Notes: generated from the sequence alone by a model not told the origin. A DNA stretch of 32,000 nt from Candidatus Saccharimonadota bacterium (GCA_022843095.1 JALHOH010000001.1:120001-152000); one strand, 5' to 3'; positions 1-30,229 are shown, counted from the stretch's first letter. Program-made: numbers and translations.

Positions 1-1501
1 GACCCGTACGCTGACACTCGGATTTGCAAGCCTCATTATTCCTCCGCGTAGCCGGAGTGACAAAAGGGCCAGAAATCTGACACTGCGCCCCCTGATCGCA
101 AAGTTGTTCGCAGCCAGAGAGTGCTTGGGCGCGTGATGGAACACAACGCCAAATATCCGCGTCACCTTCGCGTCCAAAAAACCCACAAACGTCGGTGCTA
201 TTTTTGCACGAAGCAAACAACATTATTTCACTTGCCGCGCCACTCACGGAATAGGTCGATAGATTGCATCCATCACCTCCGCAACGGCAACGATCCCCCG
301 TTTCCCCTCCGGAACACACACCCCGAAGAGGATCGCGACTTGTCGCAATACACTGCTGACCTGGTCCGCAGGCTGCATTATTTTCACATGTTCTTTCGGT
401 AGGAATGCGACTTCCGAGCTCCGCAAGATCGCGCGTTGGTGGATTGAGACAAATCCAGGCGCCCACCGTTTCTCCTCGCACCGGAACATTTTGAATGCGG
501 AGAGAATTATGAAACGAACGATCATGCGGAATGAAAGAACAGGTGAAGCCCGACTGGCAGCGAAACTCGGAAGGACGACCTGCATTATTCGTAGATTCCA
601 CCATCCCTTGCAAAAAACCATTTCGCGCATTGGACCGCCCGGTTTCATGAGAGATCTCGGATTCATAACGTCCGCGTGATACCTTGCAACCGTCACCTAG
701 ACAACTGCAGGAGTCTCCTTTTGCTCCCACCGTACAGTAGCCATATCGTGTTGGTGGACTGGAATCGCGACCACTGAGCAATTGCAGAGTGCGTGTTTTC
801 GTTTGAGGCGTGCCACAAGGATCGTCATCCGAAAAAATATGCAGCGGATTGAACCGATCCAGGACACCGCATGCGAAATCAGAAAAAGAAAAACCTGAAT
901 CCTGCTCAACGCTATAGACGTTTCGATCCTCTGGACGTCCGCTCGGATTGCCAAAATCATAGCGTAAACACTTCGCATTTGGATTTTGAAGAAGCGACAC
1001 ACAATCATGATCCGTCGTACACATGCGCCAGTTTAAATTCAGCACCTCATCATCGATGGCGATCGTTCCCGTCGTTGCCTGAATTGGAGCCTGATACTCG
1101 ACCCGAGAAATCTTCGGCAACGTCGGCATTTTCAACTGCACAAGCGCCGGATTCACGGTATTCAAAATAAGAAACGCACCGAGCGCAATCACCATCCCCG
1201 CAAGCGCATCTTTGATGATCTCCTTTCCTTTACTGATGGTTCCTGCAACCGGACTAATCAGATATAAAAACCCTCCGTATACCACCATGATCGTCGCGAT
1301 CACGACGACGATACTGATGCCATACCGATACGCACGCGCAATGTAATCCGGCAATCCCGTGACGGATCGCGTCCCCCCGATTGGAACACTTAACTCGATG
1401 TTTCCGTCTGCTGCGAGAACCAACGGCAGAGCAACCGTCATCGCCAGTACAAACACGGCGATGAAGGCAGTGATCCGACGAATCCAGGAGAACGCGCGCA
1501 T
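1..1501 (-). CDS. Secreted or membrane-anchored protein. It has an N-terminal signal/TM segment, a T4SS-pilin-like (TrbC/VirB2-like, CPR-type) hydrophobic domain, and then a cysteine-rich region of more than 350 aa. The C-terminus runs off the window start, so the gene is partial.
   Basis: This ORF is absent from the supplied track because it is open at the window edge. Hand translation of the minus strand from the ATG at 1501-1499 gives an uninterrupted frame down to nt 2, starting MRAFSWIRRITAFIAVFVLAMTVALPLVLAADGN. The segment LPDYIARAYRYGISIVVVIATIMVVYGGFLYLISPVAGTISKGKEIIKDALAGMVIALGAFLILN fits the YGG-F/W-x-L...KGK...A-x-x-G-hydrophobic pattern of CPR pilin-like domains. I count 27 Cys downstream by hand. 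The ATG lies 3 nt after the stop of the upstream DsbA-like gene. Confidence 0.75.
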   Translation of the reverse strand, partial: MRAFSWIRRITAFIAVFVLAMTVALPLVLAADGNIELSVPIGGTRSVTGLPDYIARAYRYGISIVVVIATIMVVYGGFLYLISPVAGTISKGKEIIKDALAGMVIALGAFLILNTVNPALVQLKMPTLPKISRVEYQAPIQATTGTIAIDDEVLNLNWRMCTTDHDCVSLLQNPNAKCLRYDFGNPSGRPEDRNVYSVEQDSGFSFSDFACGVLDRFNPLHIFSDDDPCGTPQTKTRTLQLLSGRDSSPPTRYGYCTVGAKGDSCSCLGDGCKVSRGRYESEISHETGRSNARNGFLQGMVESTNNAGRPSEFRCQSGFTCSFIPHDRSFHNSLRIQNVPVRGETVGAWICLNPPTRDLAELGSRIPTERTCENNAACGPGQQCIATSRDPLRGVCSGGETGDRCRCGGDGCNLSTYSVSGAASEIMLFASCKNSTDVCGFFGREGDADIWRCVPSRAQALSGCEQLCDQGAQCQISGPFVTPATRRNNEACKSECQRTG

Positions 1502-1504
1502 ACG

Positions 1505-2287
1505 CTACTTGGTAAAGACCTGTTTCAAAAGATAATCGATGACCGCGGCAAACATCCGACGATCCATGGCGCCTTCAATCTTCTTGCCGTTAAAGAAAAA
1601 CGCCGGCGTTCCCGAAACCCCCGCCGCAATCCCATCCTGAACGTCACGCTCGACCAAGGCCCTCGTCTCTCCGGAGGTGAGGCAGCGCTGAAACGCCTCG
1701 CGCTCTAATCCAACCCGCGTGGCAAGCGCGATCAGCTGCTCTTCGGAACGCTGATCCATGGATTGATACAACGCGTCATGAAACGACCAGAACTTTCCCT
1801 GTTTTTGCGCGCACCGCGCCGCAAGCGACGGACGCACCGCCTCGGGATGCAGTTCGGGAATGGGAAAATCACGCACGATCAAACGCACCGCCTCGGGATA
1901 GTCCTTCGCAAGCATCCGCCAGGCCGCATGCGATCGCTGGCAAAAAGGACAGTCGTAATCCACGAACGCAACGATGGTGATCGGTGCCGTCGACGGCCCC
2001 ATCGCTGGCGCATTCGAATCCGCCAAATCACCAATAACCCCCGTCCCTTGCTGTTCTTGTGAGCGCCAAGATGCCTCCAGTTGTTGCGCAAACAGCGGAT
2101 TGCTTTCGCCAGCGCGAATAGCTTTGTAATACACGTAAATCTGCCGGACAAACGCGATCATTCCCGCCAATAACAAAGCTAGGAAGAGACCAAGCAGAAT
2201 CTTCCACCACGAAAAACGCCGTCGGGAGTACACCTCCTCCATAGAACAAAGTATAGCACAATCGAGACGAGTCCTTATCTTGCTCAT
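1505..2287 (-). CDS. DsbA-like thiol:disulfide oxidoreductase (thioredoxin fold) with an N-terminal TM anchor.
   Basis: The 260-aa ORF contains the CPFC active-site motif (VDYDCPFCQRS), the TM segment WWKILLGLFLALLLAGMIAF, and a C-terminal GTPAFFFNGKKIEG typical of the DsbA family. An alternative start at ATG 2242 (MEEVYSRRRF) sits 7 nt downstream of an extended -10 (TGCTATACT, minus strand 2258-2250). ATG 2287 has a short-spaced GGAG. The start is therefore ambiguous. Confidence 0.85.
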   Translation of the reverse strand: MSKIRTRLDCAILCSMEEVYSRRRFSWWKILLGLFLALLLAGMIAFVRQIYVYYKAIRAGESNPLFAQQLEASWRSQEQQGTGVIGDLADSNAPAMGPSTAPITIVAFVDYDCPFCQRSHAAWRMLAKDYPEAVRLIVRDFPIPELHPEAVRPSLAARCAQKQGKFWSFHDALYQSMDQRSEEQLIALATRVGLEREAFQRCLTSGETRALVERDVQDGIAAGVSGTPAFFFNGKKIEGAMDRRMFAAVIDYLLKQVFTK

Positions 2288-2319
2288 TTTCTCCGTCCGT
2301 ACTAAGGTACAAGAACGTT

Positions 2320-2538
2320 ATGCGCCAGCTTATTTTGAATATCGCCATGATTACGGTGTCGGTGTTGCTCACGGGGTGCGTCCTCCTGCAGCAGCGCGGC
2401 TCCGGACTTGGGGTTGCATTCGGTGGCGATTCCGCCGTGTTTCGCACCAAACGTGGCATCGAAAAAGTCGTCTTCTATTTCACGGTTGCGCTTTCCGTTT
2501 TGTTTTTCGGGATCAGCATCGTGAACCTCTTCGTCTAG
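2320..2538 (+). CDS. secG: Preprotein translocase subunit SecG.
   Basis: The 72-aa product has two TM segments with the characteristic VLLQQRGSGLGVAFGGDSAVFRTKRG loop between them. Confidence 0.85.
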   Translation: MRQLILNIAMITVSVLLTGCVLLQQRGSGLGVAFGGDSAVFRTKRGIEKVVFYFTVALSVLFFGISIVNLFV

Positions 2539-12530: not shown

Positions 12531-14516
12531 TTATTTCTTCGTCATGACCCACGTGCCATCCCAATCTTGTAACGGCGGACAGGTGCGATAGGTTTCACAC
12601 CGTGCCTGAAGATTCTTGGTCGCCACATCTTCGGGATACGTCGCCAATAGCTGTGCACACCGTGCCTCTGCCTGCTCGAACTGCTGGGCAAAATACGCGT
12701 TCAGCGCTTCTTCGTACGCTTTGATCAAGCCAAGCTCCGCATCAGACACGGAACCAACTACACCAAAGACCTGATAAATCTGGATCGGCTCCTTTTTGCC
12801 TTTCACGGCAACCTTGTCCAGTTTTCGCACCACGAATCCGTCTCCCATCGCCTGCTTGGTGGCTTCGGTTACGATAATTTCGCTCCCATATTCCTTACAC
12901 AACCCTTCCGTGCGGGAGGCCAAATTCACACTGTCCCCGATCACGGTGTAATCAAAACGCAATTCCCCTCCGATATTCCCGACCACCATGTCACCCGTAT
13001 TCAATCCAACACCGACTTTCAAGGTAATCCCCGGAGGAAATGCCCCGGTTTTATTCATCTCCGCCAACTTGAGACGCATCTTTACTGCGGCACGCACGGC
13101 TCGTACGCCGTGATCCGGCTGATCAAACGGCGCATTCCAAAACGCCATCACCGCATCGCCAATGTATTTATCCAACACCCCGCCTTCTTCAAACACAATG
13201 TTCGTCATCTCGTGAAGATAGCGGTTCAACACCTCCACCAATTTTTCCGGGGTCAACCCTTCCGACAAGGTGGTGAATCCACGCAAATCCGAGAAGAGCA
13301 CCGTCATATGCCGGCGTTCCCCTCCTAATTTGAGCTTTGCCGGATTCTTGAGCAACGCGTCCACGACGTTCGACGACACATAGCGACTAAACGCATTCTT
13401 AATTTCACGACGACGTTGGTCCGCCTCCACCCACCGCTCGATAATAAGCGCGAGATAGCCGATCGCGATGACCAATGTGGGCCAGACGATATCGATCAAG
13501 ATTCCACGATCGAACGCGATGAATGCCCCAACGATCCATCCGACAAACAACGCAACGGCAAGCACGAGACTCCATCGCGCTTTCATGAACGGAACAAGAA
13601 GCCCAAGCAGAAGACCCGTGAGGATGAGAAGCGCGACGTACAACGCAGGAGAGAGCGGGACCAGCCAATGTTGGCCTGCGATGGTATCAAACGCACTCGC
13701 GTGAATCTCCACACCGGGCATAGGTTCGCCAACCGAGGTTGGGACGCTGTAGGCGTCGTGCAAATCGCGTGCCGTTGCCCCCACAAACACGATTGCATCC
13801 CGCAACAAAGCGGCATCCGCCTTCCCTTGCAGGACGTCTGCGGCCGAAACGGTTCGAAACGCCACACGTGGGGCGTTTGGCACGTGGATACGCATCATCC
13901 CTCGATCATCCGTCGGGAACGGAGGCAACCCCTGCTCTCCAAAGGCAAGCGCAGCAACCTCGACGCTAAAGGCGCGCACCGTGGAACGATCTTCGCCCTG
14001 TGTCATCGGAGGAAACCGGCGGACGATCTGATCCGGGTCAAGCGGCGTATTCGTATGACCGGTCGCTTTTGCCGCTGCACTGATGGATGGAATGCTGCGG
14101 ACAATCCCCTCGGTCGCAAACGTCGCGATCCCGGATTTGGATGCACGAAGCGGCAATTCAATCGGAAGCACCACGTTTCCTGCTTCACGCATCGCTCTCG
14201 CAAACGCATCATCCGAGGCCGCATCGGAAGGCTCCGGGAAATTCACGTCATACGCAATGACCTTTGCGCCGGCCACATCCAATGCACGAACGAGATCCGC
14301 GTGCACCGTGCGCGGCCAGGGCCATCGACCAATCCGACCAAGCGAGGCGTCATCGATGGCAACAACCGTGATCCGAGGATCTGCCGTACGATCCAAGAAA
14401 AACCGATCCGTATTCCGCTCGGACCAAACAGAAAACACCCCCATTGCCTGCAGGAGCACAGCAATAAGGGCGATTCCTCCACCAATTCCAACGGGCAACA
14501 AAGCCTTGAGGCGCAT
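12531..14516 (-). CDS. CHASE2 sensor-domain class III adenylate/guanylate cyclase.
   Basis: The 661-aa product has an N-terminal TM segment, a periplasmic CHASE2-like region (VVAIDDASLGRIGRWPWPRTVHADLV), a TM bundle, and then a cyclase domain (MTVLFSDLRGFTTLSE, GDAVMAFWNAP, VGLNTGDMVVGNIGG, DYTVIGDSVNLASRTE). A C-terminal helical tail ends in DWDGTW. Confidence 0.88.
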   Translation of the reverse strand: MRLKALLPVGIGGGIALIAVLLQAMGVFSVWSERNTDRFFLDRTADPRITVVAIDDASLGRIGRWPWPRTVHADLVRALDVAGAKVIAYDVNFPEPSDAASDDAFARAMREAGNVVLPIELPLRASKSGIATFATEGIVRSIPSISAAAKATGHTNTPLDPDQIVRRFPPMTQGEDRSTVRAFSVEVAALAFGEQGLPPFPTDDRGMMRIHVPNAPRVAFRTVSAADVLQGKADAALLRDAIVFVGATARDLHDAYSVPTSVGEPMPGVEIHASAFDTIAGQHWLVPLSPALYVALLILTGLLLGLLVPFMKARWSLVLAVALFVGWIVGAFIAFDRGILIDIVWPTLVIAIGYLALIIERWVEADQRRREIKNAFSRYVSSNVVDALLKNPAKLKLGGERRHMTVLFSDLRGFTTLSEGLTPEKLVEVLNRYLHEMTNIVFEEGGVLDKYIGDAVMAFWNAPFDQPDHGVRAVRAAVKMRLKLAEMNKTGAFPPGITLKVGVGLNTGDMVVGNIGGELRFDYTVIGDSVNLASRTEGLCKEYGSEIIVTEATKQAMGDGFVVRKLDKVAVKGKKEPIQIYQVFGVVGSVSDAELGLIKAYEEALNAYFAQQFEQAEARCAQLLATYPEDVATKNLQARCETYRTCPPLQDWDGTWVMTKK

Positions 14517-14557
14517 ATGGGAAGAGCGTAGGCGATCCTCCCACTTCCCGCAACCAG

Positions 14558-16600
14558 CTAGGGCTTCGTGGTCTCCGTGTACACCGTTATTCCGGTCGAA
14601 CCACTGACGCGGACGCCATTTTCACTGTAGGAAGCGGAAATCGTCCCCGATCCCGCCATTTGCCCCGCAAAAAAGGTGGCTCCGCGCATCGTGCCCAATC
14701 CACCATCGGACACGAAGAACGAGACCTGCCCCGTGACATCTTTTCGCGTCCCATCGCTATACAGAGCCGTTGCAGAAAGACCGGTCGAACCAAACATCGG
14801 GACCAACGAATTTCCTGACTCGACCAGCAGTTTCTCAAGAGAAACCGTTGGCGCGATCACGGAAAGCGACGTCTGCCCAGCAACCGTCGTCCCCGCACAA
14901 GGATACGTCGCCTCGACCGTGGCGGATCCAACCGAAGTCCCTGTAATCACATTCCCGCTCACCGATCCGATCGCTCCATACAATTTGACGGAGACCTTTG
15001 ACGAAACGTCTTGCTTGGATCCGTCAGCACGGATGACCGTTGCGAACACCGTTGCCCGCTCCTTCAAGGAAATAGGGCTTGGCTGCACGGAGACCAGAAG
15101 CTGCGTACATGCGACGTCCGTCGTTGGGGTCGGCGTCGGATTTGTTGGCGGTGTCGTGGGATTGACTGGCGGCTTTCCCGTCGTCACCGGCGGTTTTGTC
15201 GATGTCGGTTGGGTTCCGGACGGATTCATCGGCACCGATTGCGTCGATGAGACACTGTTCATTTCCGCCTGCTTGTCCTCTGGAAGCGGAATGAGCGGCA
15301 CGCTTGCGAGCTGCCCTTCTAAGCCCTTCATCCGCGCCTGAATCGCATAGACCTTTGCCAACAGGCGGCGGCGTTCCGTTTTTTCCATCTCGGATGCGCG
15401 TTCTTTCCAATCCCGCTCGACGTTCGGAACGCCATTCTTCACCACCTCAATCACCCGCTTTGCATCTTCCAACTTCCCACGCTGAACCAGAGCAGATGTT
15501 TCATCCAATCGCGCATCCATCAAAATCATGCGTCCGTACAACCGCCGTGAGGGTTGATCGATGGTTTCAAGCATCGCTTCTTCCAGCTGGAGCTTCAACC
15601 GATATGCGGGATCCAATGGCCCCACATCTTCAAAATCACGCCACGCTGTCGCAAGCACCTGACGACGTGCGGCAACCGGCATCCGATCGCCCCGTTCTTT
15701 CCATGTCTGGAGCATGGAACGCAGTCGCGTATTCGCCTCTCCTTGAGAACCCGCGTCTGCGAGGGATCGCAATTCGTACGCCTCTGCCCGTGCCACACGT
15801 GTGACATATCCCAAACGATCGTCCTGACCCATCATCCGTTCGCGGAGCACCTGCGACCAACGTGCCAACATGCCAGGCCGCTTGGGCTGAACAGAGGTAC
15901 GAAGCTGCTCTTTCGTGCGCCCAAGGAATGCCTCATCTTTGGCGCGTTGATTTGCTCGCCAAGCGTCATCTTTGGCCGCAATCGGCAACATCTTGGTGGC
16001 GTTTGGCTTGCGACCAAACGTCTGCATGAATCCTTCTGGCACCAAATTATCTAATTTCGGATCCGCCTCAGCGATCGCCTCAATGGCTGGAATCGCCTGC
16101 ACCGCCGCATGCGACACCCACAACTCGGATTGGTCCGCCGTTTTTTCCAGATCAAACGCCGTTCCGCGCACCGTTGCTACGACATCCGAAGTTTTGACGG
16201 TGTAATCCGCATCCAAATCAAGAAGTCGAAGCACACGCGACCAGACACGCCCTTGAGTCAACTCAACCTCCACCTGCGGATCATCCCCATTGGATGCCAA
16301 TCCAACAGATGCCACCGTCACCGAGGTGTTGGGCGCAAGACGCGTTTCGCCGCGATCAAAAAACCGAAGCGTCGCGTGACTCGCCGCACCGGTTCGCACC
16401 TCTGTTCCGGGGACAAGCGAGACCGGTTCAGAGATGGCGCGCCAGGATTCTCCAGGCGCTTTTACCTCAACCGTCCCCGTCAGATCGGTCACTTCTGCAC
16501 GGGCAGGAAGGGCCTCTGACAACTGCCCCGCATCCCATACCATCCAAACGCCCCCGCCAAGAACGGCGAGGATCAACAAAAGCAGCGCGAGTTTTCGCAT
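14558..16600 (-). CDS. FecR-domain protein with a TM anchor, a long helical middle region, a Thr/Pro linker and two C-terminal Big_2-like Ig domains.
   Basis: The FecR-like block is VTDLTGTVEVKAPGESWRAISEPVSLVPGTEVRTGAASHATLRFFDRGETRLAPNTSV. The linker is PTSTKPPVTTGKPPVNPTTPPTNPTPTPT. Repeated Ig-like segments end in GSATVEATY and GSGTISASY. I place the start at ATG 16600 (MRKLALLLLILAVLGG) rather than 16648, because 16634-16662 looks like the rnpB promoter. The stop lies 41 nt upstream of the cyclase start. Confidence 0.75.
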   Translation of the reverse strand: MRKLALLLLILAVLGGGVWMVWDAGQLSEALPARAEVTDLTGTVEVKAPGESWRAISEPVSLVPGTEVRTGAASHATLRFFDRGETRLAPNTSVTVASVGLASNGDDPQVEVELTQGRVWSRVLRLLDLDADYTVKTSDVVATVRGTAFDLEKTADQSELWVSHAAVQAIPAIEAIAEADPKLDNLVPEGFMQTFGRKPNATKMLPIAAKDDAWRANQRAKDEAFLGRTKEQLRTSVQPKRPGMLARWSQVLRERMMGQDDRLGYVTRVARAEAYELRSLADAGSQGEANTRLRSMLQTWKERGDRMPVAARRQVLATAWRDFEDVGPLDPAYRLKLQLEEAMLETIDQPSRRLYGRMILMDARLDETSALVQRGKLEDAKRVIEVVKNGVPNVERDWKERASEMEKTERRRLLAKVYAIQARMKGLEGQLASVPLIPLPEDKQAEMNSVSSTQSVPMNPSGTQPTSTKPPVTTGKPPVNPTTPPTNPTPTPTTDVACTQLLVSVQPSPISLKERATVFATVIRADGSKQDVSSKVSVKLYGAIGSVSGNVITGTSVGSATVEATYPCAGTTVAGQTSLSVIAPTVSLEKLLVESGNSLVPMFGSTGLSATALYSDGTRKDVTGQVSFFVSDGGLGTMRGATFFAGQMAGSGTISASYSENGVRVSGSTGITVYTETTKP

Positions 16601-16633
16601 AGATTCTACAAGCACTGTAGCAAAGGTCGAGGA

Positions 16634-16662
16634 TTGACGAAAGGCCATTTTTTCGCTATTCT
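16634..16662 (+). promoter_or_regulatory. Promoter candidate for rnpB.
   Basis: TTGACG (16634-16639), a 17-nt spacer, then TATTCT (16657-16662). The predicted TSS near 16669 coincides with the 5' strand of P1. Confidence 0.55.
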
Positions 16663-20133: not shown

Positions 20134-21096
20134 TTACGGATCATCTCCCCAAATCCATCCAAACTTTCGTTTCGGCAACTCTTGCCGGCAAAACTCTTCC
20201 AATTGTCGGAATGCATCCAAGAGGATCGCATCGCCTCCTGGCTGGTCGATGTGGAATCCGGGGGGGAGAAACATGGCAACGCAGGCCTCCAACAAGTTCA
20301 TCATCCAGGCATATGCATCCCAATCTTCAACCTCTGTATGGATCGGATAGCGTTCAAATAGTTTGAGCCCTCGCCCCAAGAGCGGCTCTTCCCACGCATT
20401 TTGGGCGCAATCACACTCATAGGCATGCCGATCCTCGTAATTCCCCTCTTCGTCGGTAATAATGCCAAGCTTACGATAGAGTGTTTCGATCTTTTGCTCT
20501 GGATGCACCCCGTCCATGAACCACTGTACTTCATCATCCGGATACCCGAAACGATCAAACAATCGCTGCATCAAGAACGCTCCCCACCGTGTGCTCGCTT
20601 TGTAGCTGAACACCCCTTGAAACAAAAAGGTACTGCCGCCTAAAAGCTGCTGTTTAGGCATCTTCGAAAAACGATTCTGCATGTACCGAAGGATATACAC
20701 TTCATCCTCCGGAATCTTCATGTCCCGCAATCGAGTGAGAAAACAGGTGTTGTCAGGCCGAAAAGCCCCTCGCAACGCCCCGTACGAAGACGAATACTCC
20801 TCATCGGGGGATTCACTGAAGTGACCCGGGAGGCCAGCAAGCCAAGCATGCGTCGCAGGCAGTGAAAAATCCCCCTGCCGCATGCGATTAACCCGCTCAT
20901 CAATACGCGACGTATTCGCATCCCGTACATACAGATGCGCCCGAACCTCACCATCTTGCAGAATCCGGTAACAACGGGTCATGTCTCCAAAGAATTCCCC
21001 GTAGATATTTGCGGTGACTTGTTGCTCCTGATTCTCGAATTCCATCACGTCAACTTCGGCAATATTCAACATCTCACCCTTCGTTTCTCCACCCAT
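20134..21096 (-). CDS. Hypothetical soluble protein (island gene L, 320 aa).
   Basis: The ORF has an ATG preceded by GGAGGTGAGGAGG, which is part of the repeated leader. The protein is acidic and Trp-rich (ends ...KRKFGWIWGDDP). I recognise no motif. Confidence 0.7.
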   Translation of the reverse strand: MGGETKGEMLNIAEVDVMEFENQEQQVTANIYGEFFGDMTRCYRILQDGEVRAHLYVRDANTSRIDERVNRMRQGDFSLPATHAWLAGLPGHFSESPDEEYSSSYGALRGAFRPDNTCFLTRLRDMKIPEDEVYILRYMQNRFSKMPKQQLLGGSTFLFQGVFSYKASTRWGAFLMQRLFDRFGYPDDEVQWFMDGVHPEQKIETLYRKLGIITDEEGNYEDRHAYECDCAQNAWEEPLLGRGLKLFERYPIHTEVEDWDAYAWMMNLLEACVAMFLPPGFHIDQPGGDAILLDAFRQLEEFCRQELPKRKFGWIWGDDP

Positions 21097-21104
21097 TTTC
21101 CAAC

Positions 21105-21174
21105 CCTCCTCACCTCCGTGAAGCCGTTCGCTTCGCGGAAGAATCAGAGGCCGTTCCCATGTTTGGGAACGGCG
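21105..21174 (-). repeat. Copy 1 of a 70-nt intergenic module (stop-proximal 10-bp hairpin, second hairpin, then SD). It fills the K|L spacer.
   Basis: On the minus strand it reads CGCCGTTCCCAAACATGGGAACGGCCTCTGATTCTTCCGCGAAGCGAACGGCTTCACGGAGGTGAGGAGG. It matches 22238-22307 at 67/70 positions. Two of the three differences fall in the loop of the first hairpin. Confidence 0.9.
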
Positions 21175-21183
21175 CTACCAGTC

Positions 21184-22233
21184 TCACGTCAGATCCGTTA
21201 CCGTCTCTGGCATGAACGTATTGAACGTCTGATCAGAAAGTACGTGCTTGATGATCAGGGCGGAAAGCACCTCACGTGCTCTCGCGAGATAGGTCTTGTC
21301 TCCCGGCGCGTCTAGGATCGGACCTCCTTCGAGAATACGGACAAGCCGGAACAGTGGACCTAACCCGTGCGCTACCATCAAACGATCATATTCCCGCCTA
21401 AGTCGACCGAAATACGCCCGTCCAGCCACCGGTTGTAAACGTGCAGGATCAATCTGCGGATCCATGAGCACGGCACACGTCGCAACCCATAGGATGGCCG
21501 GATCCATCGCCTCAACCGGATGAGCAAACACCGATCCAAGGTACTTCTGACTCTCCACTTCGTCCCGATATCCCTGTCTGAGCTGTACACACAGCTCCTC
21601 ATCTATGGAGATCTGATACCGATCCAAGAGATCAAGCATGCAGAGCTGCATTACCCTCGCACACTCCCTTGAGGTCACAAGGTGCTCCGCGACGCTTCCC
21701 AGATCAAGACGAAACCCCCCGGGAGAACACAAGAGCTGAATCATGCGCATCACATCCGGAAACGGGAAGACGTGTGCCGTTCTACTGTCCCCCACAGGCG
21801 GTCGCAACAAAAGTTGGAGATAGCATGTGTCAAACGTGGTCCCACGCATGGGGTCGCATGACGCCACCCGTACCTCGATCATCTGGGGAGAGATGCCGTA
21901 CAGCGGCTCTCCGCGCAGAAAACCAATCAGGCGTTCGGACAACCCCCACCCCGATAGCATGCGTGCGCGTCCGGGGGGTGGCGGAAGATCAAACTCATCC
22001 AAGATGGCAAGAAAATCACTGGATCCTTTATACACTAGATACGGATCCACGCGATTTTTTGAACAAGGAATGCGCCCATCAATGAGCACCGGAAAACGGT
22101 CTTTCCCAATGTCTACGACGACCCCCTCCGTACTTAAAGTCAAGCACTCATTTTGATAATCAAGCACTTTTGTAGACCATGCTTGCTTGAACTCAAGATC
22201 GCACGCTGACAGTCTCCTGATTTGATACACCAT
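21184..22233 (-). CDS. Hypothetical soluble protein (island gene K, 349 aa).
   Basis: The ATG lies 4 nt after the repeated SD block. No motif is recognised. The gene is flanked on both sides by the 70-nt module. Confidence 0.7.
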   Translation of the reverse strand: MVYQIRRLSACDLEFKQAWSTKVLDYQNECLTLSTEGVVVDIGKDRFPVLIDGRIPCSKNRVDPYLVYKGSSDFLAILDEFDLPPPPGRARMLSGWGLSERLIGFLRGEPLYGISPQMIEVRVASCDPMRGTTFDTCYLQLLLRPPVGDSRTAHVFPFPDVMRMIQLLCSPGGFRLDLGSVAEHLVTSRECARVMQLCMLDLLDRYQISIDEELCVQLRQGYRDEVESQKYLGSVFAHPVEAMDPAILWVATCAVLMDPQIDPARLQPVAGRAYFGRLRREYDRLMVAHGLGPLFRLVRILEGGPILDAPGDKTYLARAREVLSALIIKHVLSDQTFNTFMPETVTDLT

Positions 22234-22237
22234 GTTT

Positions 22238-22307
22238 CCTCCTCACCTCCGTGAAGCCGTTCGCTTCGCAGAAGAATCAGAGGCCGTTCCCACGATTGGG
22301 AACGGCG
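22238..22307 (-). repeat. Copy 2 of the 70-nt intergenic module. It fills the J|K spacer.
   Basis: On the minus strand it reads CGCCGTTCCCAATCGTGGGAACGGCCTCTGATTCTTCTGCGAAGCGAACGGCTTCACGGAGGTGAGGAGG. It begins 4 nt after the stop of gene J and ends 4 nt before the ATG of gene K. Confidence 0.9.
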
Positions 22308-22311
22308 TAGG

Positions 22312-22872
22312 TTACAACGAGGTCGAGCGCACAATCTTGAAGACTCCGCTGTCTTCAACAATTTCGCGCACGGTTCCTCGCATGTCCTGGACGTGCTTGC
22401 GTACCCGGTACAGGTACACCAGTAGCATCGGCTCGATCCAAAATAGGGTACAGACAGATGCGAACTGTCTGCGGATCGCGCCGTGAGCGTGTTCCTGCTT
22501 GATCAAAAGAAGCAGGAGGAGCACGCCCCAGATCGGTGCGAGCGCATAGAACGCCCCAAGCGCGAAGCTTGCAATGAAGAAGACGATGAACGCCCCCTTC
22601 CGCACCTCGCCTCCATCTCTGACGAGTTCGCCGCGCTGATCCGACAGCCAGAGTTGATATTCCAGCAAATCATGATCAGATGCGAGCTGCGCCGGATGTC
22701 GCACGCGCACTTCGGCTAAGAGCGTTGTCACAGATCGTGCCACGCCCTCTTTACAGGATCGCTGCTCCCACACGGCGATACGTCCCGCAAGACGACACGC
22801 CGTGCGACGACAGGTGGCTCCATGCGCCCAGGCATGCAGCTGATCGACGGTCAGAGGAACCGGAGTTTCCAT
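22312..22872 (-). CDS. Hypothetical membrane protein (island gene J, 186 aa) with a soluble N-terminal domain and two or three C-terminal TM helices.
   Basis: I place the start at ATG 22872 (METPVPLTVDQLHAW), which overlaps the stop of gene I as TAATG. The TM segments are GAFIVFFIASFALGAFYALAPIWGVLLLLLLI and CTLFWIEPMLLVYLY. Confidence 0.65.
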   Translation of the reverse strand: METPVPLTVDQLHAWAHGATCRRTACRLAGRIAVWEQRSCKEGVARSVTTLLAEVRVRHPAQLASDHDLLEYQLWLSDQRGELVRDGGEVRKGAFIVFFIASFALGAFYALAPIWGVLLLLLLIKQEHAHGAIRRQFASVCTLFWIEPMLLVYLYRVRKHVQDMRGTVREIVEDSGVFKIVRSTSL

Positions 22873-23141
22873 TACTCCCCCTCTTTTTTCACAGCCGCGC
22901 CAATGCGCGCCATTTCCTCCAGCACCTCCCCAAACAAGAGAAAGCGCAACAAGAAATACGAGCAGTGGCCGAAGAGGATGGCGCCAAGGACGGCTAGGCC
23001 CTTTTGCACCAACCAATGCGCCTGTTCACGTACGGCTGCGCCATAGCAGGCCCAAGTACCAAACAGGAGCATGCACCCGATCACGACATGAAGTACTGCG
23101 CATTCTCGTGCCGTGATCAATACTTTCTTTACTTCCTCCAT
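22872..23141 (-). CDS. Small membrane protein (island gene I, 89 aa, 2 TM).
   Basis: The start is ATG 23141 (MEEVKKVLITAR), preceded by GGAAGGAGGGTGGG. The TM segments are AVLHVVIGCMLLFGTWACYGA and LAVLGAILFGHCSYFLLRFLLF. It lies 20 nt downstream of the stop of gene H. Confidence 0.6.
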   Translation of the reverse strand: MEEVKKVLITARECAVLHVVIGCMLLFGTWACYGAAVREQAHWLVQKGLAVLGAILFGHCSYFLLRFLLFGEVLEEMARIGAAVKKEGE

Positions 23142-23161
23142 CCCACCCTCCTTCCTGGATT

Positions 23162-23590
23162 CTAACCCAGAATGATCTCGTCTACGGCAAATGCCGCACG
23201 ACCAGCGCACGTACACCACGCTTGAAGTACCGTCGCAACAACCGGTTGCAACGGACGCGGCGTCACAACGCCGAACCCTTGGCTCTGCCAGCCGGTCACG
23301 TTGCCGGCCACATCGCATTCCCCTGCGCCCTCCAATAGGATGGTCCGATCTCGTGGCAGATTCTCGAGCGCCTCGAACCGAGTCCGCTCCCGAAACACCT
23401 GCTCGAACGTCTCATCCAGAGGGATGGTGGCGCACAGATACAGGATCACATGCGAGGCGAATGCGCCAAGCCAGATCTTTTCTCCTTGCACCAAGAACTT
23501 CAAGGTCGGCCGCGAACCGCTCACGACAAACGCCTTCGCCCGACGCGACCGTGAACTCATTTCCGCTCTGCTGATGTAATGTACCTGCAT
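23162..23590 (-). CDS. Hypothetical soluble protein (island gene H, 142 aa).
   Basis: The ATG is preceded by AGGGAGG at 5-nt spacing. The composition looks globular (MQVHYISRAEMSSRSRRAKAFVVSGSRPTLKFLVQGEKIWLG). No motif is recognised. Confidence 0.6.
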   Translation of the reverse strand: MQVHYISRAEMSSRSRRAKAFVVSGSRPTLKFLVQGEKIWLGAFASHVILYLCATIPLDETFEQVFRERTRFEALENLPRDRTILLEGAGECDVAGNVTGWQSQGFGVVTPRPLQPVVATVLQAWCTCAGRAAFAVDEIILG

Positions 23591-23755
23591 TCATACCTCC
23601 CTGTTTGCCCACAGAATCCTCTGAGCAAAAAGGGAGGCAGAACGGAAATTCATCCACTACGATCTGACGAAAGAGGCGGTCGGGTAGAAACCAACGCACC
23701 TCCTTTGGAAGATCGCCCTCTCTCGTTGGAGAGAGCGCAGGATCCGAGAAGATCC

Positions 23756-24667
23756 TCAGACGCGCAAGGACAATGGCGGTGGCAACCGCACAAGTCCAAG
23801 CGCATCTCGCACGATAGAAAGGACGGCGCCGACACTGATTCCCAGGTGATACGGGAGCGCCTTGGTCCCGAGCATCTGCAGGTGCCGCGCAAGCGCGACC
23901 GGCGAAACGGAGACCATCTCACGAGTGCCGTTTGCTTCGATGTGCCAAAAATGCAGAGGCACACCGTATTCCAGCGTCGCGATCACGTACCGAAGCTGCG
24001 TTTCCAACTCCGAGCGAGTGGGAACGCGTCCGAAGTACGGAGCCGCGGATCCCCGGTAAGGCGCCCCGGTATTCACGGAGACCTCTTTTACGCACTGCTG
24101 CTTTTTTAGCATCGCATCCCAGATGCGCAACACCGTGAGCGCGATGGTCGGCGGGAGATCTTGCAGCGTTTCCACGAGGTCGATCTCCACCAACGGACTG
24201 CACCGTTTCAGGATCCGGATGCACGAGGCATAGGATCCATCCTCGGGGCGAAGCGTGAGCCCGTGAGGTGTTTCCCGAAGCGCCTCCCCCGCCGCTCCGA
24301 CGATGATCGTGTTGTCCCACTCCGTCTCATCGACGCACGTGAGAGCGACTTCGTACGTGTCTCCGGCACTTGGAGGAAATGCTCCGCGCAACTCGTCGAC
24401 GCACCGGATAGAAAGCCGCAACAACCGTTGCTGCTTAAGCGATAGCAGCCGATTTCCAAGAGCCGCGTCGAGATCGTTCCGCCAGGAAGGGACCCCATCG
24501 ATCACCGCGAGGAGCGGCTCGATGGGTCGCGTAGACCACCGTCCTTTCCCGGCGCTCATGCGCACATCGACAGGCGCCCCTTCAACACCCACGATCCGCG
24601 CGATCACTCCTTCTGGCGCAGGCACACCCGTGTCCGCGAAGACGCGAATGTCCGGTTTCGTATTCAT
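23756..24667 (-). CDS. Hypothetical soluble protein (island gene G, 303 aa).
   Basis: I place the start at ATG 24667 (MNTKPDIRVFADTG), preceded by GGAGGTGGTG, only 14 nt after the stop of gene F. No motif is recognised. Confidence 0.65.
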   Translation of the reverse strand: MNTKPDIRVFADTGVPAPEGVIARIVGVEGAPVDVRMSAGKGRWSTRPIEPLLAVIDGVPSWRNDLDAALGNRLLSLKQQRLLRLSIRCVDELRGAFPPSAGDTYEVALTCVDETEWDNTIIVGAAGEALRETPHGLTLRPEDGSYASCIRILKRCSPLVEIDLVETLQDLPPTIALTVLRIWDAMLKKQQCVKEVSVNTGAPYRGSAAPYFGRVPTRSELETQLRYVIATLEYGVPLHFWHIEANGTREMVSVSPVALARHLQMLGTKALPYHLGISVGAVLSIVRDALGLVRLPPPLSLRV

Positions 24668-24681
24668 CACCACCTCCGTTC

Positions 24682-25575
24682 CTAAAACCGCTGGCCAGAC
24701 GCGCGAGGGAACCATCTCCCGCGCACGCGCACCTTCATGACAGACGAAAGCGCCTCCGCAAACACGTACTCGCCGCGTTCGCGCACTGCATCAGTGTCCA
24801 CCGCCTTCGCCTCCGACAGGATACGCGTGCCCATCGTGACCACGCGATCCGCCAGATTCTGCCGATACGTCCAGGCCTGTTTTGCCGGCGTCACCGTGAA
24901 CCGATGAAGCGCCTGCACGCATTCCTGCACATCCGACGAAACCTCCGCGACCTCGACAGCCGCGAGAACCTGTCCAAGCTCGGACAGATCCGACAGCGTC
25001 GACGCATCCCCGACCCCGATGATCGGTCGGGAAAGACGCAACGACTGCAACACGGTCATCACGAACTTCTCGAGCACGGCACGCTGCTCTGGACCGGGAA
25101 GCGTTTGCCACCAGGCAAACAAATCCACCTCCAGAAACGCCCCAAATGCCGCAACCGCCGGCCAATAAAAGGACTCCCGAACCTGGACCAACCACAACGC
25201 ATGGCGCGTCGCACGATCCACGATCTCGAACCGGCCAGCAATGCCGGAGATCGCCCCCTTCTTTCCTGTCGCAGCATCCGACGGTCGTTCGACGGACGGG
25301 CGCAAAAACACCGTGTCCGCCGCCGGGGCAAGAAACTTCCCCTTCCAAACCGATCGGCGACGGTCCTGCCACGCGACGACATGCTTGCCGTACACGGGCT
25401 CCATCGTCCCGATGAGCTCGTACCCCAGCGCCTCCTGGGTGTGGAGATCGATACTCACCGCCTCCTCATTCGTAGGAAAGCCGACCAGCTCTCCAAGTGG
25501 GAGAGGCGAAAGCGGCTTGGCTCGCTCGGCGGCCACCAAACGATCCCGTAACATCTCCTTCTCTTTTTCGTTCAT
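24682..25575 (-). CDS. Hypothetical soluble protein (island gene F, 297 aa).
   Basis: The ATG is preceded by GGGGAGGATGGAGGAAGA. The N-terminus is MNEKEKEMLRDRLVAAERAK. No motif is recognised. Confidence 0.65.
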   Translation of the reverse strand: MNEKEKEMLRDRLVAAERAKPLSPLPLGELVGFPTNEEAVSIDLHTQEALGYELIGTMEPVYGKHVVAWQDRRRSVWKGKFLAPAADTVFLRPSVERPSDAATGKKGAISGIAGRFEIVDRATRHALWLVQVRESFYWPAVAAFGAFLEVDLFAWWQTLPGPEQRAVLEKFVMTVLQSLRLSRPIIGVGDASTLSDLSELGQVLAAVEVAEVSSDVQECVQALHRFTVTPAKQAWTYRQNLADRVVTMGTRILSEAKAVDTDAVRERGEYVFAEALSSVMKVRVRGRWFPRASGQRF

Positions 25576-25612
25576 TCTTCCTCCATCCTCCCCACGACAC
25601 CGCGTCCTGGGG

Positions 25613-25647
25613 AAAAATGAGGCCAGGAAAACCGTCCGTTTTCCTGG
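25613..25647 (-). terminator. Intrinsic terminator or attenuator inside the island, in the E|F spacer.
   Basis: The minus-strand RNA reads CCAGGAAAAC-GGACG-GUUUUCCUGG (10 bp) followed by CCUCAUUUUUCC. It starts 4 nt after the stop of gene E. Confidence 0.7.
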
Positions 25648-25651
25648 ACAC

Positions 25652-26536
25652 CTACAGGCTCTTCAATATGGTCGTCATCTGTCCAAAGCCGCTATCCAAG
25701 ATCAAGACTTCTTCTGGATAAAGTTCCCGCGCGTACGCTTCGATCGTGTGAGCAAAGACCTCGTCGTTCGAAAGGGAGAAGTATCGATCTGCGAATTCAC
25801 GCCTCACCAACGCAAACCCCCACATCGCAGCCATGACGGATCTGTCCTCGTCTCGAAGTGCCTGGACAAACCGCTCCAGCGCTTGCTTCCACGGCGTGGA
25901 AGGAATCGTCGTCACCCAGTTCGCGACGTCGTTCACCAAGGTCTGTCGTACAGGCTGCTCGGCAAATGCCGCAAGAACAACATCTTGCGCCTGTTCAACC
26001 GACCAAAGCTGCCGAATGAGCGCCAACGTGGCACGCAAAATCCTTACGGGTTGATGGATAAACGCTCCTTCGAGCGAGACCGTGGTACGCTTCCGCAATT
26101 CGCCACGCAACACGGCCATCTCCTGATGCGTAGGCTCCTGCCATTCAGAGACGAACACAGCGTAATCGAAACGAGGCTGACGGTATTGCACTCGCTTCTC
26201 CTGCCGCGGCATCCTGAGACAAAACGCCGTTGGGCAGGAATACCCATACTCGCGCTCATCCGCAGGCATAGGAGGCACACCATCCATGTACAAACAATCG
26301 CGTCGCGCCTCTCCGGTGAGCACGGATTCGAGAAGCGTCCTATTCACCGCTTCTTCTTGAACCGTTTGTGATCCAAGAAAGGCATACGCCCGATAACAGG
26401 GCAGGTACACGGTGGTGATGCGTCCACCGTTGCGCCCCACCAATCGCCAGGTGAGGTCCACCATGCGTCGCTCCTCGATCAAGGTCCTGTAGACCTCGCG
26501 AGACGCCTTCTCACCAAGAATTTCAAATGTGCTCAT
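25652..26536 (-). CDS. Hypothetical soluble protein (island gene E, 294 aa).
   Basis: I place the start at ATG 26536 (MSTFEILGEKASREVY), preceded by AAGGAGGGG at 4-5 nt. The upstream part of the track ORF covers the structured spacer. No motif is recognised. Confidence 0.65.
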   Translation of the reverse strand: MSTFEILGEKASREVYRTLIEERRMVDLTWRLVGRNGGRITTVYLPCYRAYAFLGSQTVQEEAVNRTLLESVLTGEARRDCLYMDGVPPMPADEREYGYSCPTAFCLRMPRQEKRVQYRQPRFDYAVFVSEWQEPTHQEMAVLRGELRKRTTVSLEGAFIHQPVRILRATLALIRQLWSVEQAQDVVLAAFAEQPVRQTLVNDVANWVTTIPSTPWKQALERFVQALRDEDRSVMAAMWGFALVRREFADRYFSLSNDEVFAHTIEAYARELYPEEVLILDSGFGQMTTILKSL

Positions 26537-26540
26537 CCAT

Positions 26541-26626
26541 CCCCTCCTTGGAAGCCATTCGCTTCCTCTCTCCCCACATCTGCGAATATGGGAAAAGAGG
26601 AAGCCGTCTTCATGGGAAGACGGGAA
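26541..26626 (-). repeat. Degenerate third copy of the hairpin/hairpin/SD module, in the D|E spacer.
   Basis: The minus-strand RNA reads CCGUCUUC-CCAU-GAAGACGG ... GGAAGC-GAAUG-GCUUCC-AAGGAGGGG. The segment CTCCTTGGAAGCCATTCGCTTC matches CTCCGTGAAGCCGTTCGCTTC of copies 1 and 2 at about 19/24 positions. The AGAGG..CCGT..CATG..GGGAA..CGG block is also shared, with an insertion of about 30 nt. Confidence 0.5.
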
Positions 26627-26664
26627 GAAAGAACGAAAGATCATTTCCAAAAAAGAACGATTTG

Positions 26665-27198
26665 TCAACGGATCCGCATCGTTTTGGCACGGTACCGCTG
26701 AAAGCGCACTTCCGCGTATTTATGATTGCGGAACGGACGTTCCATGCAGGTTGTGGGCGACCAAAGCGCAAGACGTCCATCCGAGAGCGGCGTCACCTGT
26801 TCTTCGTCCAGGTTTCCCGCAATCCCAGGCGTTTCTCGCCACCAAGGCCGTGGATCCGGGTCGATCGCCTCCGGCGTCCCGAACACCAAATCCCCATCCA
26901 TCCACAAGATGTCCCACGTCAGCGGATACGAAACCACCTGAAACTGATCCGCCACATACAGCCACCCTGTGACCCCTTCCAGCTCAACCATCATCTCCAT
27001 CGCTTGTCGGACCTGCTCAATCCAACGTCGCAGTGGCGCGTGGTATCGATCGAGATAGGCGCGCAACAGCACCGGCTCCCGGATCAGGGATACCACGGCT
27101 TCCTGATACGCCCGATCTTGCTCCTTCGCCCGGTCAAAGTCCCGGACGACCTGCACGATCTGCTCCTGCAACGCAAGCAGCTCTTGTTTCAGCGTCAT
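26665..27198 (-). CDS. Hypothetical protein (island gene D, 177 aa) with an N-terminal coiled-coil-like helix and a Trp-rich C-terminal domain.
   Basis: I place the start at ATG 27198 (MTLKQELLALQEQIVQVVRDFDRAKEQ), preceded by AAGGAGG at 6-nt spacing. The later segment is GWLYVADQFQVVSYPLTWDILWMDGDLVFG. Confidence 0.6.
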   Translation of the reverse strand: MTLKQELLALQEQIVQVVRDFDRAKEQDRAYQEAVVSLIREPVLLRAYLDRYHAPLRRWIEQVRQAMEMMVELEGVTGWLYVADQFQVVSYPLTWDILWMDGDLVFGTPEAIDPDPRPWWRETPGIAGNLDEEQVTPLSDGRLALWSPTTCMERPFRNHKYAEVRFQRYRAKTMRIR

Positions 27199-29666: not shown

Positions 29667-29770
29667 TTTCAAAGTCCTTTCTGGAGCACCTGCTCCAACG
29701 AAGGTTCGGATGCGCAACACATCCGAGGCTTTGTTGGAGCCATCTCTTCGCAGAACACAGAGAGATGAAC

Positions 29771-30229
29771 TCAGTGAAGACATCTGGCCGACGGAATCGT
29801 CAATGGAATCTCCATGTTCACATTGATCAACTCACCCCGACAGAGGCCAGACAGTCGAGAACGATCGGATGAGCCAACCTGGGCAAAAATCCGCATTGAA
29901 GCGAGCGAACGCCCTTCAAAAGAAGACCATTGCTCACTGCCATATCGAGGTTGACGTCCTTGAGTGCCTTCGCAAACAACATTCGCATGGACGAACCCCA
30001 TCCAACGCTGATCCATACGGAGTTGCAACCGAGATCCGCGAGAATCATGCCTCTCCCCAATTGGACCAAAAGCGAACACCCTCCATCCCGACGGACAATA
30101 CGAGAGGTCCGCCCGACTAACATCGATGCAGAGGTGGCCTTCCGGACACGAAGGAAGTGGTTCGCTCCCCCGGCACCCAGCCACCACCATCACCAATACA
30201 GCCAGAAGCAGAGTGAACAAGCTCTTCAT
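29771..30229 (-). CDS. Small Cys-containing lipoprotein (island gene A, 152 aa), the first gene of the island.
   Basis: The N-terminus is MKSLFTLLLAVLVMVVAGC (signal peptide with the lipobox VAGC). Six further Cys follow. The SD AAGGAG sits 8 nt before the ATG. Confidence 0.65.
   Translation of the reverse strand: MKSLFTLLLAVLVMVVAGCRGSEPLPSCPEGHLCIDVSRADLSYCPSGWRVFAFGPIGERHDSRGSRLQLRMDQRWMGFVHANVVCEGTQGRQPRYGSEQWSSFEGRSLASMRIFAQVGSSDRSRLSGLCRGELINVNMEIPLTIPSARCLH

Follow-up and report, generated by a model that had tools for sequence, protein, structure and literature searches.

A DsbA-like oxidoreductase gene adjoining the gene for a cysteine-rich, VirB2-like hairpin protein in Patescibacteria: evidence for a putative oxidative-folding cassette

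We have analysed a 32,000-nucleotide stretch of DNA from Candidatus Saccharimonadota bacterium (GCA_022843095.1 JALHOH010000001.1:120001-152000), referred to below as the window, at one end of which a gene for a DsbA/MdbA-like thiol-disulfide oxidoreductase is followed on the same strand by a gene for a large cysteine-rich protein that carries a T4SS_pilin-like hairpin module. We consider it reasonably probable that the two form a co-transcribed cassette of an Uhrbacteria-like genome within the Patescibacteria, in which a DsbA dedicated to oxidative folding is coupled to a hairpin-anchored, disulfide-stabilized surface protein. The sequences themselves show the gene order, the sequence motifs, the homologies of the two products, the pairing of DsbA specifically with cysteine-rich partners, the presence of paralogous DsbAs and the limitation of Cys residues to the flanks of the hairpin.

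Using an alignment of the hairpin module, we scanned 185,579 species-representative genomes and obtained 79 loci (designated below by the letter L and a number), all of which are from Patescibacteria by title or by synteny. The loci represent species and are not phylogenetically independent, and their open reading frames (ORFs) were called by a simple longest-ORF rule with genetic code 11, so that starts and gaps are approximate and code-25 lineages are fragmented. DsbA genes were sought at these loci with the window DsbA by phmmer and, in addition, with profiles, and a module protein was counted as Cys-rich when it contained at least 10 Cys. At 36 of 48 Cys-rich loci (32 detected by phmmer and 4 by profile), the first module gene was immediately preceded on the same strand by a DsbA homologue, as opposed to none of 32 Cys-poor module loci, at which no DsbA gene was found anywhere in the locus (Fisher p ~1e-12). 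About six of the Cys-rich loci that lack DsbA begin at a contig edge. The distance between the DsbA and module genes is mostly -4 to +8 nt across loci, and the same pair occurs on independent metagenome contigs (L002, L091, L115, L142 and L155), of which L002 has the DsbA stop codon, 4 nt, and then the gene for protein P0005. A pairing that a preliminary description of this DNA had pointed out in the window was thus borne out in related genomes. Chance adjacency is rejected on these counts, and recurrence across many Patescibacteria genomes argues for a conserved cassette rather than a chance neighbourhood.

The cassettes were seen in two chromosomal contexts. Group A, to which the window belongs, has the order RNase J .. 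SBP_bac_5 < secG > DsbA > module gene > uvrA, and secG bounds the window cassette as it does in syntenic relatives. Group B has the order clpC-like .. c2 > DsbA > 1-4 module genes > radA < recG, in which c2 denotes a family of proteins of ~415 amino acids (aa) with an N-terminal transmembrane (TM) segment, weak similarity to TolB propellers and no Pfam match. In two metagenome-assembled genomes (MAGs), we found two cassettes with a separate DsbA paralogue each, namely JAIOPK01 (L005, with CPFC, and L007, with CTYC) and CAYZVS01 (L006 and L017). Paralogous DsbAs, one per cassette within a single MAG, argue for dedicated partners rather than for one housekeeping enzyme.

Two side observations concern these contexts. 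At group-B loci (for example, L038 1524-16310) the c2-DsbA-module cassette lies between the clpC-like gene and radA; since in Firmicutes clpC and radA stand next to each other in the clpC operon, the cassette has the appearance of having been inserted into a conserved housekeeping operon. Also, L003, L004, L006, L008, L010 and others are from assemblies titled 'uncultured Gammaproteobacteria bacterium' (TPA_asm), with 40-75% protein identity to the window; these MAGs are probably mislabelled Patescibacteria, having the same gene order as the window and as the Uhrbacteria-labelled L005.

Assignment of the upstream gene to the DsbA family was supported by Pfam matches to Thioredoxin_4 (PF13462; 2.9e-27, 96.3 bits vs a cut-off of 23.2) and DSBA (PF01323; 1.3e-17, 64.6 bits vs a cut-off of 25.6), and by 18 DsbA-family matches in a PDB sequence search, including Corynebacterium DsbA (4pwp), Bacillus BdbD (3eu3) and 3gyk. 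Together with the hydropathy profile, these results agree with the earlier account of a DsbA-like gene that has a CPFC active site and a TM anchor and ends at 1505. A basic stretch, SRRRFSWWK, lies to the N-terminal side of the TM helix, and by the positive-inside rule the protein would be oriented N-in/C-out, with an extracytoplasmic catalytic domain. The first Cys and the Pro of CPFC are invariant in our DsbA alignment (A3), in which L010 has Thr in place of the second Cys (CPFT). The G-T-P loop lines up with GTPSF of 3gyk, its cis geometry being predicted. Both CPFC and the GTP loop are kept in 31 of 36 other aligned cassette homologues, the exceptions being L010 and four copies that lack CxxC, which are described below. 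Only 32 bp (window 2288-2319) separate the annotated starts of DsbA and the divergent secG; the true start of DsbA may be Met16 (2242), in line with the shorter N-termini of orthologues. Profile searches revealed no second DsbA gene in the 32-kb window. Exact-match look-ups for flanking sequence returned a 1,276-bp Logan contig for DsbA only, and nothing for the complete Cys-rich protein (P0001) or for P0002 and P0003.

At the junction of the two genes, the DsbA stop codon TAG occupies positions 1507-1505 and the next ATG positions 1501-1499, without overlap. The translational coupling stated in the preliminary description is something that we infer from this 3-nt spacing. A terminator scan detected none at the junction, and the promoter/terminator scan of the window as a whole gave no significant signal above shuffles. 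In the sequence TAG CGT ATG (window 1499-1507) the DsbA stop and the downstream start share a reading frame; this is probably incidental, as the frame relation varies among other loci. Stop-codon read-through fusion of two in-frame ORFs was considered and rejected because the frame relation is not conserved elsewhere (gaps -4 to +8).

The ORF that had been described as following DsbA directly, with its start at 1501 and no stop before the window edge, was confirmed, with 500 codons open. By search of a 5.8-billion-protein collection we recovered it at full length as P0001, a protein of 509 aa and 28 Cys that is encoded on a contig of 683,555 bp and has 9 residues outside the window; the earlier hand count of 27 Cys within the window proved exact, all of them falling within residues 161-496. 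The N-terminal hydrophobic helix has a predicted signal-peptide cleavage site between PLVLAA and DG. The module that follows consists of two helices, YRYGISIVVVIATIMVVYGGFLYLI and ALAGMVIALGAFLILNTVNP, with a short basic loop (..SKGKEIIKD) between them, the loop joining the two hairpin helices being SPVAGTISKGKEIIKD. An AlphaFold2 model built from a 15-sequence alignment placed the hairpin helices at residues 50-82 and 89-116, with predicted local distance difference test (pLDDT) values of 74-85, and the remainder of the protein is non-hydrophobic by hydropathy. P0001 thus has the layout by which VirB2/TrbC pilins are recognized, that is, a signal peptide and then two hydrophobic helices with a short basic loop.

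Homology searches with the module gave a consistent picture. T4SS_pilin (PF18895) is alone among Pfam families in matching the hairpin, at E 0.0047 with the whole protein and 1.5e-4 with the module alone; the scores, 17.4 and 22.2 bits respectively, are both below the gathering score of 26.6. With phmmer, 14 other proteins were matched at E 5e-25 to 2.5e-5, across the module only, and most of these have precomputed PF18895 hits. PF18895 is matched by all 11 aligned modules (best 1.8e-10), one of which also matches TrbC/VirB2, and by 51 of 81 Cys-rich relatives; a profile made from the module alignment (A2) matches the window module at 5.8e-42. Positions Y53, G76, G77, Y80, I96, G102, I112 and N117 are invariant in the alignment. 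Judged by these matches, the window module is clearly homologous to PF18895-bearing proteins of Patescibacteria, and on the same grounds we assign it to the 'VirB2-like' superfamily of the candidate phyla radiation (CPR) of Quinonero-Coronel et al. 2025. The preliminary description of a pilin-like module therefore holds by homology (E 5e-25), although the protein's own Pfam score is below the gathering score. Of the two outcomes that were named there as refuting the finding, the lack of a match to pilin-like families and the lack of a conserved dsbA adjacency, neither was observed.

P0001 as a whole misses three hallmarks of pilins, namely the family score, small size and a type IV secretion system (T4SS) neighbourhood. 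With 509 aa, 375 of them in an ectodomain after the hairpin, it is not essentially a hairpin alone. A PDB sequence search found nothing for P0001, and the module profile retrieved only generic TM hairpins (for example, HtrII) at E above 0.3. A Foldseek search of the PDB gave no match at E <= 0.001. A profile search found no second pilin-module gene in the 32-kb window, and a window scan for the prepilin motif of type IV pili (T4P) found none.

The Cys-rich ectodomain is an orphan. A phmmer search with the ectodomain alone retrieved no protein other than the query from among 1.84 billion representative proteins. No Pfam or NCBIfam family was matched, and no catalytic domain could be recognized; the best family match, to a DX module, was dropped at E 0.78. 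Weak similarity was detected to syntenic orthologues only (L003 at 1e-11). A regex scan showed that a lineage-specific 7-Cys module, which ends in C-x8-C-x-C-x4-C (CSGGETGDRCRCGGDGC), occurs twice in the ectodomain; this module is also found in L002, L003, L006, L008 and L010 (and in P0005 and P0006). Among syntenic orthologues, identity is 71-75% for RNase J, 45-59% for the hairpin, 38-42% for DsbA and ~25%, over partial alignments, for the ectodomain, which by this lowest value is the fastest-evolving part. Such a pattern, with the hairpin kept and an orphan ectodomain diverging quickly, would be typical of exposed interaction surfaces.

Within its family, the window protein is a minimal form made up of signal peptide, hairpin and then ectodomain. 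Most relatives have the hairpin in the interior of the chain (residues ~100-260), flanked on either side by domains that are often Cys-rich. The N-terminal placement of the module reported earlier is accordingly correct for the window protein and not general among its relatives; likewise, the large passenger, which had been called unusual for a pilin, is unusual by comparison with canonical VirB2 and is the norm in this clade (>80 examples). Cys residues make up 3.3% of module proteins vs 0.92% of the products of neighbouring genes, and within the module proteins they make up 0.24% of the hairpin, 5.7% of the N-side and 3.5% of the C-side. This confinement of Cys to the hairpin flanks is as expected if both flanks are extracytoplasmic, in the VirB2 topology. 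Among 81 Cys-rich relatives, Pfam identified passengers of the FGE-sulfatase-like (8), Peptidase_M15 and VanY (5 and 3), Peptidase_C39_2 (4), SGNH/DUF459 (3), Glucosaminidase (3), NlpC/P60 (2) and SLT (1) types, most of which are binding domains or domains active on peptidoglycan.

A different arrangement was noted in Peregrinibacteria and Peribacteria (L057-L080; for example, L058 1020-7602, L063 7603-14233 and L065 7701-14527), which have a conserved trio of genes and no DsbA. Two members of the trio are proteins of ~315-360 aa with three tandem T4SS_pilin-like modules each; the third, which follows them, is Cys-poor, with ~1,500-1,780 aa and one N-terminal module.

The mechanism that we propose for the cassette can be outlined as follows. 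The first gene encodes a DsbA/MdbA-type enzyme, which a single N-terminal TM helix would hold on the outside of the cytoplasmic membrane. The product of the second gene would be exported by Sec and held in the membrane by its VirB2/T4SS_pilin-type hairpin, N-out and C-out with the basic loop in the cytoplasm, exposing a fast-evolving ectodomain of ~375 aa and 28 Cys. One mRNA would give rise to both proteins, probably by termination-reinitiation, and the two would be inserted into the membrane side by side. The tethered oxidoreductase could then form, and possibly shuffle, disulfides (14 at most) in the ectodomain while this leaves Sec, and the outcome would be a rigid, protease-resistant surface protein for contact between cells or with the host envelope. 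In this scheme it is the topology, the co-translation, the catalysis by DsbA on this client and the role of the ectodomain in host interaction that we infer. An interaction role of the ectodomain is suggested only by those paralogues that have peptidoglycan hydrolases or binding domains as passengers.

Several observations weigh against this scheme. There is no DsbB or VKOR re-oxidizing partner among the genes of the 32-kb window, and no obvious Shine-Dalgarno sequence lies 5' of the second ATG. Cys parity in 84 complete relatives was even in 50 and odd in 34, a marginal skew (p 0.05, with start codons crudely chosen). The AlphaFold2 model from the 15-sequence alignment had pLDDT below 50 in the ectodomain, and a second run, with 4 sequences, had a mean of 32.8; because both models are unusable, we assign neither a fold nor a disulfide geometry to this part of the protein. 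Six assessable Cys-rich loci (L008, L034, L055, L056, L080 and L081) have no adjacent DsbA. Among the 80 best metagenomic matches to DsbA, a module gene is downstream in only 4, the DsbA family being broad. Also, the cassette DsbA homologue lacks CxxC in L032, L038, L042 and L054 and has CPFT in L010, and the partners are still Cys-rich. In the former four (L032 8829-9545, L038 8841-9545, L042 3516-4220 and L054 7466-8170), TNPDS or TNNQS replaces CxxC; these copies and that of L010 (9085-9825) keep the cis-Pro loop and the upstream position, and they look like pseudo-enzymes or chaperone-like copies. Where CxxC is lost, the DsbA partner cannot be the oxidase, which leaves a chaperone role, or disulfides made by another enzyme, in those lineages.

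These exceptions bear on a reading in which the DsbA-like protein is mainly a non-redox chaperone or assembly factor, as is TraF, and disulfide chemistry is secondary. We regard this reading as very unlikely for the window. It would account for cassettes that have lost CxxC (four) or changed it to CxxT (one) while the gene itself, its location upstream of the module gene and the cis-Pro loop were all kept, and there is a precedent in the F plasmid, which has a CxxC-less TraF alongside a redox-active TrbB, and Cys-rich clients (PMC11315126). Yet the window copy keeps both CPFC and the GTP loop, as do most of the other cassette homologues, and the association is strictly with Cys-rich partners. 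The latter point likewise counts against the DsbA being a general housekeeping oxidase that adjoins the module gene through a heavy client or through operon drift, with no dedicated unit. This explanation, to which we give a modest place as an unlikely one, draws on the ~40-45% identity of the thioredoxin domain to ordinary members of the DsbA family from numerous other phyla, on the treatment of the CPR family by Meheust et al. 2019 as a general MdbA-like enzyme, sometimes with VKOR adjacent, and on the existence of Cys-rich proteins that have no adjacent DsbA (for example, in L008 and L056). However, the adjacency is held in two unrelated chromosomal contexts, with DsbA divergence down to ~30% identity, it is missing at all 32 Cys-poor module loci, and a genome can have two cassettes, each with a paralogue of its own.

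A further explanation concerns the partner, which might polymerize as a true VirB2-type pilin or enter the pilus of the cell's T4SS as a minor or tip subunit, the Cys-rich domain then serving as an adhesin along the filament or at its tip; this would be compatible with folding by DsbA, and we think it quite unlikely. PF18895 is the best family match, and VirB2-like arrays have been reported near virB4 in CPR bacteria (10.1101/2025.01.22.634366). We also observed short, Cys-poor members of the module family (164-400 aa) in VirB4 clusters at L009, L031, L044 and L052, in the order VirB4 > x > x > pilin > c2. The c2 gene is 3' of the short pilin in these clusters and 5' of DsbA in group-B cassettes, flanking both, and its presence at both sites links the two gene sets. 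On the other hand, profile and Pfam searches found no VirB4, c2 or other T4SS-cluster family at window positions 2.3-32 kb, and in syntenic relatives it is uvrA, not T4SS genes, that lies downstream of the module gene. In most relatives the hairpin is flanked on both sides by bulky domains, which would seem hard to accommodate in tight helical packing, and solved VirB2 and TraA pilins are not matched by sequence (PDB search) or by fold (Foldseek). We continue to favour a dedicated DsbA with a hairpin-anchored, disulfide-stabilized partner.

As side observations on these T4SS-related genes, the positions of c2 are L009 10453-11604, L031 10451-11605, L044 11001-12257, L052 11049-12317 and L014 7398-8645. 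L056 (1-11296) has a VirB4 cluster followed by three very Cys-rich proteins of 1,231, 903 and 449 aa (23, 36 and 37 Cys, respectively) and then a module protein, with no adjacent DsbA.

The features of the cassette and its immediate surroundings are collected in Table 1.

Table 1. Positions in the window of the DsbA-like gene, the gene for the Cys-rich hairpin protein and associated features
Feature	Position	Strand	Basis
DsbA/MdbA-like thiol-disulfide oxidoreductase gene (260 aa; coordinates include stop codon)	1505..2287	-	ORF call
DsbA-like N-terminal membrane anchor, residues ~27-48	2144..2209	-	Hydropathy windows 1.9-2.1; same TM aligned in orthologues
CPFC active-site motif, residues 113-116	1940..1951	-	Sequence; DsbA alignment A3
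G-T-P cis-proline loop of thioredoxin fold (predicted), residues 226-228	1604..1612	-	Invariant G226, T227, P228 in A3
3-nt spacer CGT between DsbA stop TAG and next ATG	1502..1504	-	Sequence
Gene for putatively hairpin-anchored Cys-rich protein; first 500 of 509 codons in window	1..1501	-	Translation
Predicted signal peptide/first hydrophobic helix, residues 1-30	1412..1501	-	Hydropathy 2.5; AlphaFold2 helix 3-30
T4SS_pilin (PF18895)-like module, residues ~33-135	1097..1405	-	Pfam PF18895 over residues 62-115; AlphaFold2 hairpin
Predicted extracytoplasmic Cys-rich ectodomain, residues 136-500 in window, 27 Cys	1..1096	-	Cys positions; full protein 28 Cys
First copy of motif C-x8-C-x-C-x4-C (CTVGAKGDSCSCLGDGC), residues 256-272	686..736	-	Regex scan
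Second, compact copy of 7-Cys module (CENNAACGPGQQCIATSRDPLRGVCSGGETGDRCRCGGDGC), residues 372-412	266..388	-	Regex scan
secG, divergently transcribed context marker	2320..2538	+	Pfam SecG 8.4e-12; synteny

Elsewhere in the window, six consecutive minus-strand ORFs of 234-349 aa (20134-26668) have no Pfam match; a plus-strand ORF (25241-26371) that overlaps them is likewise without a family, and an ORF of 626 aa (27903-29783) has only a lipoprotein-signal match. On the minus strand at 12531-16648, a gene for a CHASE2-adenylate/guanylate cyclase (661 aa) adjoins one for a 696-aa FecR-domain protein, and the two are a putative sensor-plus-cyclase pair in a small genome.

Each component of the cassette has known counterparts. 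Meheust et al. 2019 (PMC6744442) described an MdbA-like family, fam000318, that is enriched in CPR bacteria, keeps CxxC in 89% of members and sometimes has VKOR adjacent; the loss of CxxC in ~10% of cassettes here fits that figure. T4P pilins were proposed as clients in that study, which names only the third most frequent neighbour family and makes no mention of VirB2-like or type IV secretion proteins or of an adjacency to them. MdbA itself, which is membrane-bound and folds pilins in the monoderms Actinomyces oris and Corynebacterium diphtheriae, resembles the window DsbA in its single TM helix, CxxC and cis-Pro loop, in an extracytoplasmic location (predicted for the window DsbA), in the lack of an outer membrane and in that the proposed clients are surface or pilus proteins; also, the best matches of the window protein in the PDB sequence search include structures of Corynebacterium DsbA. 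The two differ in that MdbA clients are sortase-assembled pilins encoded away from mdbA, whereas the proposed client gene in the window adjoins DsbA.

VirB2-like pilin genes were known beforehand to be abundant, and sometimes essential, in CPR bacteria, and Quinonero-Coronel et al. 2025 (10.1101/2025.01.22.634366) described such pilins of Patescibacteria and their tandem arrays; their report contains nothing on DsbA, disulfides or passenger fusions, the sole fusion mentioned being VirB3-VirB4. These pilins resemble the window protein in having a hairpin after a signal peptide and in being restricted to Patescibacteria, and tandem divergent paralogues occur both in their arrays and in group-B cassettes (1-4 copies). 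They are, however, only ~100-160 aa long, whereas the window protein has 509 aa and a 28-Cys ectodomain, scores below the gathering score, is away from virB4 and is coupled to DsbA. The T4SS of F-like plasmids (PMC11315126) has the thioredoxin-fold proteins TrbB (with CxxC) and TraF (without), and the Cys-rich proteins TraN (22 Cys), TraU and TraH. The logic is the same, in that the system has its own thioredoxin-fold helper, in redox-active and CxxC-less versions, and Cys-rich envelope or adhesion clients; the differences are a diderm periplasm, soluble helpers, another thioredoxin subfamily and no pilin-fused clients, and the comparison is meant as an analogy only.

Conjugation in monoderms uses membrane-anchored peptidoglycan hydrolases of the VirB1 type, such as CwlT, TcpG and PrgK. 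Many passengers among the 81 Cys-rich relatives are cell-wall hydrolase domains (Peptidase_M15/VanY, Glucosaminidase, NlpC/P60, SLT, Peptidase_C39_2 and SGNH) and are reminiscent of these; the conjugation enzymes have a single TM helix, whereas the window family has a VirB2-like hairpin and genes outside T4SS clusters, and the window ectodomain contains no recognizable catalytic domain. Full-text literature searches found nothing that links disulfides with VirB2 or pilins in CPR bacteria (Patescibacteria). The components are known; their coupling, specific and conserved as it is, and the fused layout appear not to have been described previously.

Patescibacteria are mostly uncultured and host-attached, and little is known of their surface molecules. 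The link made here, of a CPR oxidoreductase that is operon-coupled specifically to Cys-rich, multi-domain pilin-hairpin proteins, many with cell-wall-degrading domains, points to a concrete client for the DsbA family of CPR bacteria. It also provides a search signature for candidate host-interaction proteins, namely a DsbA gene that has genes for hairpin proteins of 10 or more Cys after it, and the CxxC variants, together with the copies that lack CxxC, form a natural series in which to study how thioredoxin-fold helpers become specialized. Patescibacteria are generally thought to be without quinones and respiration, and the cassette raises the question of how DsbA is re-oxidized under such conditions. 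More tentatively, and as a possibility that we consider less likely than not, Patescibacteria may have repurposed the VirB2 hairpin as a general membrane anchor or pilus-insertion handle for a large family of quickly diversifying, disulfide-armoured exoproteins, with a co-evolving DsbA of its own for each cassette. If so, peptidoglycan hydrolases would be among the exoproteins, as would lectin-like domains and orphan Cys-knot modules of the kind in the window, and some cassette DsbAs would be catalytically dead and serve as chaperones. The cassettes would then constitute a surface toolkit for attack and adhesion for epibiotic life, derived from T4SS and yet independent of it, in which the window gene would be a determinant of host specificity.

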